From a virus (lineage: Duplodnaviria > Heunggongvirae > Uroviricota > Caudoviricetes): a stretch of 64,000 nt of DNA. This document shows positions 40,401 to 43,400 of this stretch, piece by piece. The position numbers are program-made. The stretch's first letter is position 1, and each line of letters starts with the position of its first letter. Location: IMG/VR virus record IMGVR_UViG_2939521961_000004, one strand, 5' to 3'.

Positions 40401-43400
40401 GGGCCCGCGGGTCCTCAGGGGCCGAAGGGTGATAAGGGAGAGCGCGGTGACACCGGCCCTGTCGGGGCAACCGGTGAACGGGGACCGGCAGGTGATGCTG
40501 GTCCGGCAGGCCCGCAGGGGCCGAAAGGTGACAGGGGAGAGCGGGGAGAGACCGGTCTGACGGGAAATGCAGGTCCACAGGGTCCAAAGGGAGATACCGG
40601 TGCGGCAGGCCCGGCAGGCCCACAGGGACCGAAAGGAGAAACAGGTGCGGCTGGCCCGGTGGGGGCAACCGGACCTCAGGGGCCGAAGGGCGACCCGGGG
40701 GAGGCACAAATACGGTTCCGTCTGGGGCCGGGAAACATTATTGAGACAAACAGCAATGGCTGGTTCCCGGATACAGATGGCGCACTCATCACCGGACTGA
40801 CCTTTCTTGACCCCAAAGATGCCACACGGGTTCAGGGTTTTTTTCAGCATTTGCAGGTCAGGTTTGGTGACGGGCCGTGGCAGGATGTCAAGGGGCTGGA
40901 TGAAGTGGGCAGTGATACAGGCAGAACAGGAGAATGACATGAATATACTAAAAAAACTTATGCAGCGTCTGTGTGGTTGCGGAAAGCATGATGGCCGTGA
41001 ACACGTGCAGTCGCTTACAGCACAGCTGCGACTGGGACCGGCAGACATTCTGGAGTCCGATGAGAATGGCATTATCCCGGAGCAGGCCAGGGTAATCACG
41101 CAGGTGGTGATACTGGATGCGGATAAAAAGCAGATACAGTGTGTGGTAAGACCGCTGCAAATCCTGCGTGCTGACGGGACGTGGGAAAATATTGGCGGAA
41201 TGAAATAGCCGACAGCTTCACAAAAACCGGAGTCCGGCTCCGGTTTTTGTTGGTTAGATGTAATCTGACAGATACCTGTATAAATAACCGGTAACTGTCA
41301 GGTCAGAGCTAATACAGGTAATTATATTATAATCACGAGCGCTTAGATGTATTAATACCATGCTCTGCAAGATGCTGCATCAGACGCTGAGCCACATCAG
41401 GCAGAGGTCTTGATTGTTCATTTTGTACCGGCGGCGTTGGCGCAGGCCAGTTAGGTGCCGGAGGAATATATTCAGCCATATTCCGGGCTGGTTGAATGCC
41501 ATGCTCTGCAAGATGCTGCATCAGACGCTGAGCCACATCAGGCAGAGGTCTTGATTGTTCATTTTGTACTGGCGGTGGTGGCGCAGGCCAGTTAGGTGCC
41601 GGAGGAATATGTTCAGCCATATTCCGGGCTGGTTGAATGCCATGCTCTGCAAGATGCTGCATCAGACGCTGAGCCACATCAGGCAGAGGTCTTGATTGTT
41701 CATTTTGTACTGGCGGTGGTGGCGCAGGCCAGTTAGGTGCCGGAGGAATATGTTCAGCCATATTCCGGGCTGGTTGAATGCCATGCTCTGCAAGATGCTG
41801 CACCAGACGCTGAGCCACATCAGGTAGAGGCCGATGTAAAGCGTTTTTTTCTATACTTGACTGAGTATAAGATGTGGGACGTTGAAGTCCTGATTCTGTA
41901 TAAGAATTTTTTACCTTAAAAATAGTTGTTGCACTGGCAGGACTGTTGCTGGGAGAAAAAGGTGAGCTGGTTTTTACCGTGTTAGGTGTGCTTTTGTGCT
42001 GCGAGACAGTGAAGGTACTGCTGCGTATAGCACTTGATATACTGCGAGGAAGGCTGGAAAAAAAAGAATTAATGCTATTTATCATATAGATAACCTTATA
42101 AGAGCTTTATTGGATAGTCTTATTTATCCGTTTACATGAAATCTACCTTTTGTGAAATTCTCGTCAATATTTTACTCAAAATGATCGGCTGTAGGAATAA
42201 ACTATTTGATATTATTACGTTTTTAGGGTTGTTTTCAATCAGCTATAGATAGGGCTTGGCGCCAGAATGGAGAATATTTAACGAGGAATAGAAGCTTTGT
42301 ATCAGACGGGCTTCCCTAAATAGAGAAGTTAAATAATCAGGATGATGCTAATGAATATCAGGGACAAGGTGAGTGTCTTCATGTTCAGTGAAACAGGGTG
42401 TCACAAAAAAGATTGGGGGGGGCTAGAGCCTTCTGCACGAAAATAGTGATGCGACAGATCTGAGATAGCTTTGTATCCTTCTGCCTGGTTCAGGCCTGGA
42501 GCAGTCCATGTTTTACAAAAATACTCGGCAGCGTAACGTGTTGCAAGAGCGGCATCAGACGAGGAACCTGAGGTTCCGCTCATGACCGATAATCTCATCC
42601 GAATAAAAATATACCAATTGGTATACCAAGTTTATACCAAGAGCCAAAAAAGCAAAGGGGCTACCATTTGGTAACCCCTTGATTATTTGGCGGAAGCGCA
42701 GAGATTCGAACTCTGGAACCCTTTCGGGTCGCCGGTTTTCAAGACCGAAGAAAAACAAATAAAAATCAGTGCAATACGTGAAATTGCTGAAAAGTTAATC
42801 AAATTTAACACCAAGAAAAATCAAGGTATTAGGAAGTTGCTCATAGCTAGTATACCAAGTCTTTTTGCCAGAAATTTTTCTGGATTGTCTACTTGCTAAC
42901 CACGAGCGGCAAATCCAGTGTTGGTGTGATTTTTGTTTTACGATCGTAAATCAACACCTGATTTTCTGTTTTATGCCCGCTGAAAATTTGTTTGTCGCGA
43001 CTGCTGCCTTCGTAATCTGAGATCCCCTTGGCTTTTATGTCGTGAAAATTGCACCCGAACGGAACGCCAACTTTTTGCTCGGCTGCGCGTTTAGCCTGAT
43101 TCCACCAGTTATTCAGCGTTTTAGCTATGACTTTCCCGCCTTTGGTTGTATTGATCACATATTCGCATGTACAGGAAGATACATTTCGGGCTAACTGGAT
43201 CGCTGTACGTAATCGCGGTGACCATTCCTTGATTTGTTTGGTGCCGGTTTTGTTTTGCTCAATGTAGATCCCTTTATCCATAATATCCTGCCATTTCAAC
43301 TCAAGCACATCACCGAGTCTTGCCGCACAGAGATAGGAAATCTCCATTGCAATGCGTAACTGTGGAATTGCTTCCGCATATATCGCCGCATACTGTTCAT

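Follow-up and report, generated by a model that had tools for sequence, protein, structure and literature searches.

The 64 kb stretch of DNA studied here (64,000 nucleotides; hereafter the window) comes from the IMG/VR record IMGVR_UViG_2939521961_000004, a virus assigned to the Caudoviricetes, and carries genes of two lambdoid prophages, here called A and B. Between the cargo genes of prophage A and the integrase gene (int) of prophage B lies a short segment, here called the seam, in which a fragment of a tRNA gene is flanked by two arms in the manner of a phage attachment site (attP). The attP-like site is approximately 285 bp in total. Its parts are:

42596..42682, no strand assigned: int-distal attachment (att) arm, from prophage A, with three direct copies of TATACCAA and one overlapping inverted copy
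42645..42680, minus strand: intrinsic terminator encoded by the phage, immediately past the 3′ end of the tRNA
42683..42747, minus strand: core of the att site, 65 nt with 100% identity to K-12 serT
42748..42888, no strand assigned: int-proximal arm of the att site, belonging to prophage B and containing a single TATACCAAG site (42851-42859)

When a 2.3 kb segment around the seam was used as a query, it was 100% identical to dozens of complete O26 genomes. A 24.9 kb query shared 100.0% identity with its closest genome, that of Escherichia coli strain 6629 (NZ_CP075006.1). On these matches, the window is from an O26-type enterohaemorrhagic E. coli (EHEC). The context outside the window was read from the annotated records of E2865, 6629, NIID080884, 7_12_30A and K-12, and the anatomy of the att site was established by aligning five copies of it.

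An initial annotation of the window had recognised the 3′ 60 nt of a tRNA-Ser(UGA) gene at 42688-42747, and alignment confirmed this. The minus strand of this segment shares 100% identity with the 3′ 60 nt of K-12 serT, and the match extends for 5 nt past the tRNA end (42683-42687). The identity thus spans the second base of the anticodon stem to the terminal CCA plus these 5 nt, and the block occurs once in the window. ARAGORN did not call a tRNA at 42688-42747, as expected for a fragment that does not include the 5′ 28 nt. The anticodon loop of the fragment corresponds to 42737-42743, and the identity block ends four bases past this loop on the 5′ side and beyond the tRNA 3′ end on the other. 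The arms of the anticodon stem (CCGGT/ACCG) bracket the 7-nt loop and fall inside the block, an arrangement compatible with inverted core-type sites. In a separate IMG/VR record, IMGVR_UViG_2657245112_000012 (locus L024), only 6 core nucleotides (CGGTCT) separate the int-proximal arm from unrelated phage coding sequence. This joint appears to be a deletion that removed the remaining tRNA fragment, and it was set aside as evidence for the crossover point.

The seam is flanked by the following features:

41333..42085, minus strand: tccP2, for a type III secretion system effector with EspF repeats, the last intact cargo gene of prophage A (PF04806 EspF, E 5.5e-109; WP_012817749.1)
42410..42592, minus strand: espV pseudogene fragment of 183 nt, a remnant of prophage A cargo (RefSeq 'secretion protein EspV, incomplete' in E2865)
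42889..43536, minus strand: C-terminal part of the prophage B integrase, a pseudogene (Pfam PF00589, E 1.6e-8; RefSeq 'tyrosine-type recombinase, incomplete')
43537..44846, plus strand: insertion sequence IS629 (IS3 family), annotated inside the int of B, with a 3-bp target duplication
44847..45221, minus strand: N-terminal part of the prophage B integrase, from BLAST against the intact integrase of prophage A
45199..45441, minus strand: DUF4224 protein, the likely excisionase of B (PF13986, E 1.2e-8; PHROG 1266 'excisionase', E 4e-23)

To the left of the seam are J, lom, two tail-fibre genes (stf), tccP2 and the espV remnant, and to the right are the split int, the DUF4224 gene, exo, dicB and a full early region. 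The gene order fits the earlier description of prophage A as ending after stf and tccP, to which the espV fragment has to be added. The region of this fragment is 100% identical in E2865, and espV is also annotated at the equivalent place in phage Evi; the fragment had no Pfam match. Prophage B had been said to begin with int, and an integrase gene is indeed found there, but in this genome it is a pseudogene split by IS629. The statement that only the tRNA fragment lies between the two prophages was incorrect, as the interval also contains the espV remnant, the phage terminator and both att arms.

Prophages A and B are in the same orientation, and from tccP2 and the espV fragment to the int of B there is only arm, core and arm. 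Each has a complete lambdoid gene set to itself, comprising an early region, a tRNA trio and a late region. The trios, of the usual lambdoid ileZ-argN-argO type, are 49 kb apart, at 13068-13317 and 62392-62643 in the window. The first tRNA of each trio is Met (CAT) according to ARAGORN and tRNA-Ile in RefSeq. The two prophages carry differing alleles and modules, including those for replication, immunity and the head. Their left ends, comprising the att arm, int, xis and the exo region (approximately 97.6% identity in the latter), are near-identical. As a separate lambdoid gene set is present on each side and the tRNA trios are 49 kb apart, two complete prophages meet at the seam, as the initial annotation had proposed in describing two phages in series at one tRNA site.

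A comparison with the attP of related phages, suggested at the outset, led to phage Evi (LR597642), a 40 kb record with a vegetative lambda-like map. Phage Evi contains, contiguously and in this order, stf, tccP remnants, espV′, arm, core, arm, int, xis and exo. Its int-distal arm and core are identical to those in the window, and its int-proximal arm is approximately 90% identical. Judged by this alignment, the seam has the same parts in the same order as the attP of a free phage. Homology to Evi is continuous across 41300-43536, and continuous homology to a single phage had been named as something that would count against a tandem junction. It was found, but it does not speak against a tandem array, because the internal seam of such an array necessarily re-creates attP. 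The same continuity would also be seen if there were no seam at all, the segment being an attP inside a single phage genome or the product of an assembly error that had duplicated one prophage. With a full lambdoid set of its own on each side, differing in alleles and modules, and with tRNA trios 49 kb apart, this explanation is scarcely credible. The A-seam-B arrangement is moreover found in 48-60 independently assembled complete genomes; O103 and O45 genomes carry this array too, as does the published genome of the O26 reference strain 11368. In yet other genomes, serT is occupied by just one of the two phages.

We conclude, with a probability of about 0.9, that 42596-42888 is the inner junction of an array of two prophages in serT, in which attR of prophage A and attL of prophage B together re-create attP. 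The attP of this phage family consists of the 3′ 60 nt of serT, an int-distal arm that carries three repeats and a surrogate terminator, and an int-proximal arm that carries one repeat and lies beside xis-int. A lambda-type tyrosine integrase, with its N-domain bound to the repeats, would exchange strands within the shared 65-nt block, presumably in the anticodon loop and with the two arms of its stem as core-type sites. Integration would leave serT rebuilt and intact at one end and a 3′ fragment at the other. If one of the hybrid sites then took up another phage of this type, the array would read yccA, core, A, core, B, serT, hyaA.

The outer ends of the array were examined for this order. 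At the left outer end in E2865 and 6629, yccA is followed by the native serT terminator, exactly as in K-12, then by the core and an intact int. In NIID080884, the order is prophage A, seam, prophage B (int::IS629), J, lom, espK, intact serT and hyaA, without interruption. The distance from the seam to serT is 54.7 kb, and the blocks are colinear with K-12. The core copies sought at the outer ends were therefore present at the left end in E2865 and 6629 and, as intact serT, at the right end in NIID080884, but not at the right end in 6629 and E2865. There, prophage B ends with stf and an antA fragment and abuts a wrbA truncated to its first 18 codons, beyond which lie ymdF and rutG. In these two genomes, intact serT and hyaA are found approximately 305 kb further on, on the same strand, behind a chimeric prophage, here called X.

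Prophage X has a lambda-type int at its left end, at potC, and espK with a serT-type int-distal arm at its right end, and its late-gene proteins have the same accessions as those of prophage B. A Shiga toxin (Stx) 1a prophage located downstream of hya...yccJ-wrbA combines a wrbA-type int with a late region of this kind, and its right end is at potB. In these genomes, prophage B is of the serT type at its left end and of the wrbA type at its right end. From their gene content, B, X and the Stx1a prophage are chimeras that have exchanged halves. Relative to K-12 and NIID080884, this exchange has interchanged two blocks, serT-hya...wrbA′ (approximately 35 kb) and ′wrbA-ymdF...potC (approximately 200 kb), in NZ_AP018808.1 (1.17-1.62 Mb) and NZ_CP075006.1. 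Strain 11368 is block-interchanged as well. Intact serT is 305 kb from prophage B in 6629 because the right half of B has been exchanged with other prophages, including the wrbA prophage. An intact tRNA-Ser gene elsewhere, with no core copy at the outer prophage ends, had been put forward as grounds for rejecting the tandem array. Taken literally, this is seen in 6629, where one outer end has no core, but as the sibling strain and the shared late regions show that halves were exchanged later, the distant serT is no refutation.

Chimeric synthetic queries were used to place serT in O26 genomes; a K-12 serT-hyaA query matched every genome. All but three of approximately two dozen strains among the matches listed in both searches have the ~300 kb arrangement. 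The exceptions are NIID080884, which is colinear, 7_14_47A, in which serT is on the opposite strand and 2.3 Mb away, and 7_12_30A (NZ_CP074845.1). The latter has one copy of prophage A in the A-B array at yccA and a second copy between X (espK) and intact serT, with a further attP-like seam between X and this second copy. The int-distal arm beside intact serT-hyaA is found behind tccP2 in 470/5426 genomes and behind espK in 119/5426. The first of these configurations, tccP2-arm-serT-hyaA, was ruled out as the arrangement in E2865 and 6629, from which it is absent.

The arms are marked by a short repeat. Exact matches to TATACCAA number six in the window, against 1.07 expected (standard deviation 1.01), and none of 100 shuffled sequences reached six. 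Five of the six are within 250 bp, at 42610(+), 42618(-), 42622(+), 42633(+) and 42851(+). Those at 42610, 42622 and 42633 are the direct repeats of the int-distal arm, with the motif TATACCAA(G), and that at 42618 is the inverted copy. An 11-mer, GTATACCAAGT, is identical at 42621-42631 and 42850-42860, one copy in each arm. The repeats had been located in the initial annotation to within a few bases, and all five copies fall in 42610-42858. A perfect 16 bp palindrome, TATACCAATTGGTATA, is formed by the first two repeat copies. There was no enrichment in the window of ATACCAAG with one mismatch allowed (45 found versus 41.6 expected). ACACCAAG at 42808 was considered as a second int-proximal arm-type site and rejected, as it is not conserved in IMG/VR loci L059, L084 and L086.

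The terminator within the int-distal arm has an 11-pair stem (42680-42655) followed by the T tract TGCTTTTTTG, with a fold z-score of -3.7, and its loop contains TACCATTTGGTA, which resembles the repeat motif. At the seam, this phage hairpin has replaced the native serT terminator, which is found at the yccA end and in K-12. With one mismatch, the int-distal arm is also present after the espK cargo beside intact serT, and the homology there begins only at ~42596. The 141-nt int-proximal arm differs by one base from the arm at the left end of prophage A.

The integrase of prophage A is intact and 339 aa long (locus L002, 10605-11624, minus strand; NZ_AP018808.1). Residues 1-319 align in one stretch with residues 1-340 of lambda Int (1z1b; E 5.6e-20). 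The first 60 residues align with residues 1-60 of lambda Int, which form the arm-binding N-domain, and include the signature LPP..NGY.Y...GLGR. The Pfam match to PF00589 (E 4.4e-8) is above the curated cut-off, and R197, K220, H289, H312 and Y321 match catalytic residues of lambda Int. Neither Pfam nor NCBIfam assigned the integrase to a specifically named family, and a scan of genome contigs for it returned only 2 loci.

Relatives were used to follow the repeats. In a Salmonella attR contig, three direct copies (TATACCAA, TATACCAA, GTACCAAC) are present beside the tRNA end, the palindrome formed with the inverted copy has been lost, and the sequence further out is unrelated. In relatives with 54% and 70% identical integrases, namely the 'Stenotrophomonas' phage BUCT708 and an IMG/VR element (L097) at a serU-like tRNA, three copies of ATTCTAAG occupy the same place. 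An E. coli-type IMG/VR variant, L077, has TATACCAGG in both arms in place of TATACCAAG. The int-distal arm of L077 has a single TATACCAGG copy, as if three repeats had collapsed. A further IMG/VR locus, L080, also has the TATACCAGG variant, with only the int-proximal arm covered. For the comparison of arms, approximately 15 IMG/VR loci were usable, most loci stopping 3 nt past the int stop codon, and TATACCA was invariant across 13 distinct variants of the int-proximal arm.

The initial annotation had suggested that the repeats are integrase arm-type sites. This is supported by clustering beyond chance, by conservation of position while the sequence varies, and by the lambda-like N-domain of the integrase. 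On this comparative evidence, the repeats are most likely arm-type sites for the integrase N-domain. They might instead serve another protein, such as Xis, IHF or a repressor, or act in the surrogate terminator or in regulation of the cargo genes. A dimeric regulator would be suited by the palindrome TATACCAATTGGTATA, and TACCATTTGGTA does lie in the terminator loop, but the Salmonella relative has kept the three direct copies and not the palindrome. The 11-mer also occurs once in the other arm, one variant alters the motif in both arms, and the type of motif follows the divergence of the integrase. Lambda attP, in addition, is laid out in this way, with three copies in tandem on one side of the core and fewer on the other. 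That the repeats are not integrase arm-type sites appears quite improbable.

In BUCT708 (OM816834.1, vB_SmeS_BUCT708; 2985-3130) and L097, attP is inverted relative to int, and as in lambda the three ATTCTAAG repeats either overlap the int stop codon or come directly after it. Oddly for a phage with Stenotrophomonas as its stated host, BUCT708 also has a 59-nt stretch with 100% identity to enterobacterial serT.

Several observations weigh against the interpretation of 42596-42888 as an integrase-made seam in serT, or against parts of it. The int-proximal arms that were compared share 85-100% identity, which makes the conserved single repeat within them weak evidence. Pfam called no arm-binding domain in the integrase, the N-domain having been recognised from the alignment to lambda Int only. 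The integrase has K292 at the position of lambda R311, the second catalytic Arg, and reads H-D-I-K where lambda Int reads H308-E-L-R311. A Lys is present at the same position in the relative with a 54%-identical integrase, and since precise insertions are found in hundreds of genomes, a family with this Lys is evidently active. The crossover would be placed in the anticodon loop by the location of the identity block.

The seam would also look the same after site-specific entry of the second phage and after its entry by homologous recombination. By the latter route, a circular incoming phage would have recombined with a resident prophage, via RecA or Red, and left attP between two possibly chimeric prophages. 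The near-identity of the left ends of A and B, through att arm, int, xis and the exo region (~97.6%), would have provided the homology, and the prophages of O26 do recombine, with B, X and the Stx1a prophage sharing late-gene proteins and having swapped halves. Recombination among O26 prophages has been described (PMC10042803). Nothing specific speaks for homologous entry, as the seam is identical by either route, and the presence of tccP2 or espK phages at serT, with precise ends in hundreds of genomes, argues that the site-specific route works. We regard entry by homology as unlikely and favour site-specific integration of both phages into serT.

The break points of IS629 in the integrase gene of B were set by alignment to the intact int; matches to IS629 are also found in Stx phage records. 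Strain 11368, an O26 strain whose genome covers 95% of the 24.9 kb query, has an undivided integrase gene without IS629 in the same array. As its int is intact, prophage A could in principle be excised by recombination between the yccA-side core and the seam. Prophage B would be locked in place, because its int has been broken by IS629 and, in the nearest genome, the right half of a wrbA prophage has taken the place of its own.

In lambda, the internal seam of a tandem lysogen is attP, with arm sites P′1-P′3 and P1-P2, and Int is a heterobivalent tyrosine integrase. The site described here resembles lambda attP in having, over a total of approximately 285 bp, a core between two arms with short direct repeats, three of them in tandem in one arm. 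The integrase is likewise homologous to that of lambda over its full length, including the N-domain, and xis is upstream of int. Unlike the 15-bp core of lambda, the core here is a 65-nt copy of a tRNA 3′ end. The arm with the triple repeat is int-distal, while in lambda it is beside int. The arm motif, TATACCAAG, the terminator built into the arm and the Lys at the position of lambda Arg311 are further differences.

Williams reportedly defined, in 2002, an anticodon-loop class of integration sublocations within tRNA genes, used by phages and islands whose attP includes the 3′ portion of the gene, starting at the anticodon stem. The serT site resembles this class, as the identity block runs from the anticodon stem through the 3′ end, and the gene is rebuilt at one end with a 3′ fragment at the other. 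The assignment to this class is made here from the start of the identity block only.

By its sequence organisation, the seam is an ordinary attP of the lambda type, built around the 3′ end of a tRNA, a structure already known in kind. serT is a listed prophage integration locus in Shiga toxin-producing E. coli (STEC) O121 (PMC8767318), and tandem prophages sharing an attB represent the traditional view of such arrays (PMC8112680). The array resembles the STEC prophage clusters described in the latter study in consisting of effector-carrying lambdoid tandems, with integrases inactivated by insertion sequences and recombination between prophages. It differs from the case reported there in that the second phage uses the ordinary shared att core and not an attB inside a prophage. 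The tandem seam and its att architecture had been recognised correctly from the raw sequence, and the finding itself matters little. It does define the att core and arms of a family of serT-integrating tccP2/espK phages in non-O157 EHEC and enteropathogenic E. coli. It also leaves prophage A potentially excisable and prophage B presumably locked by IS629 and the exchange of its right end. Where prophages recombine, neither the lack of an intact tRNA gene at the end of an array nor continuous homology to a single phage is a valid argument against a tandem array.

A decayed serT-type arm-core-arm is present at ~2960-3260 in LC567822.1 (PPompW_132418), with a mutated tRNA fragment that is approximately 84% identical. 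It is located between the tail genes and espO-nleG-espM in ompW prophages of O145:H28, and is not among the three attB-in-prophage sequences of PMC8112680. Its order of parts looks like the fossil of a collapsed prophage seam. Such a fossil would be compatible with a tentative idea, which we consider unlikely to be correct, that seams, being complete attP-like sites within prophage arrays, could stay recombinogenic and that decay of the downstream prophage would fuse its end-of-genome effector genes behind the tail genes of the upstream one. If it is true, the collapse of tandem arrays would give lambdoid phages a general way of acquiring effector loci.

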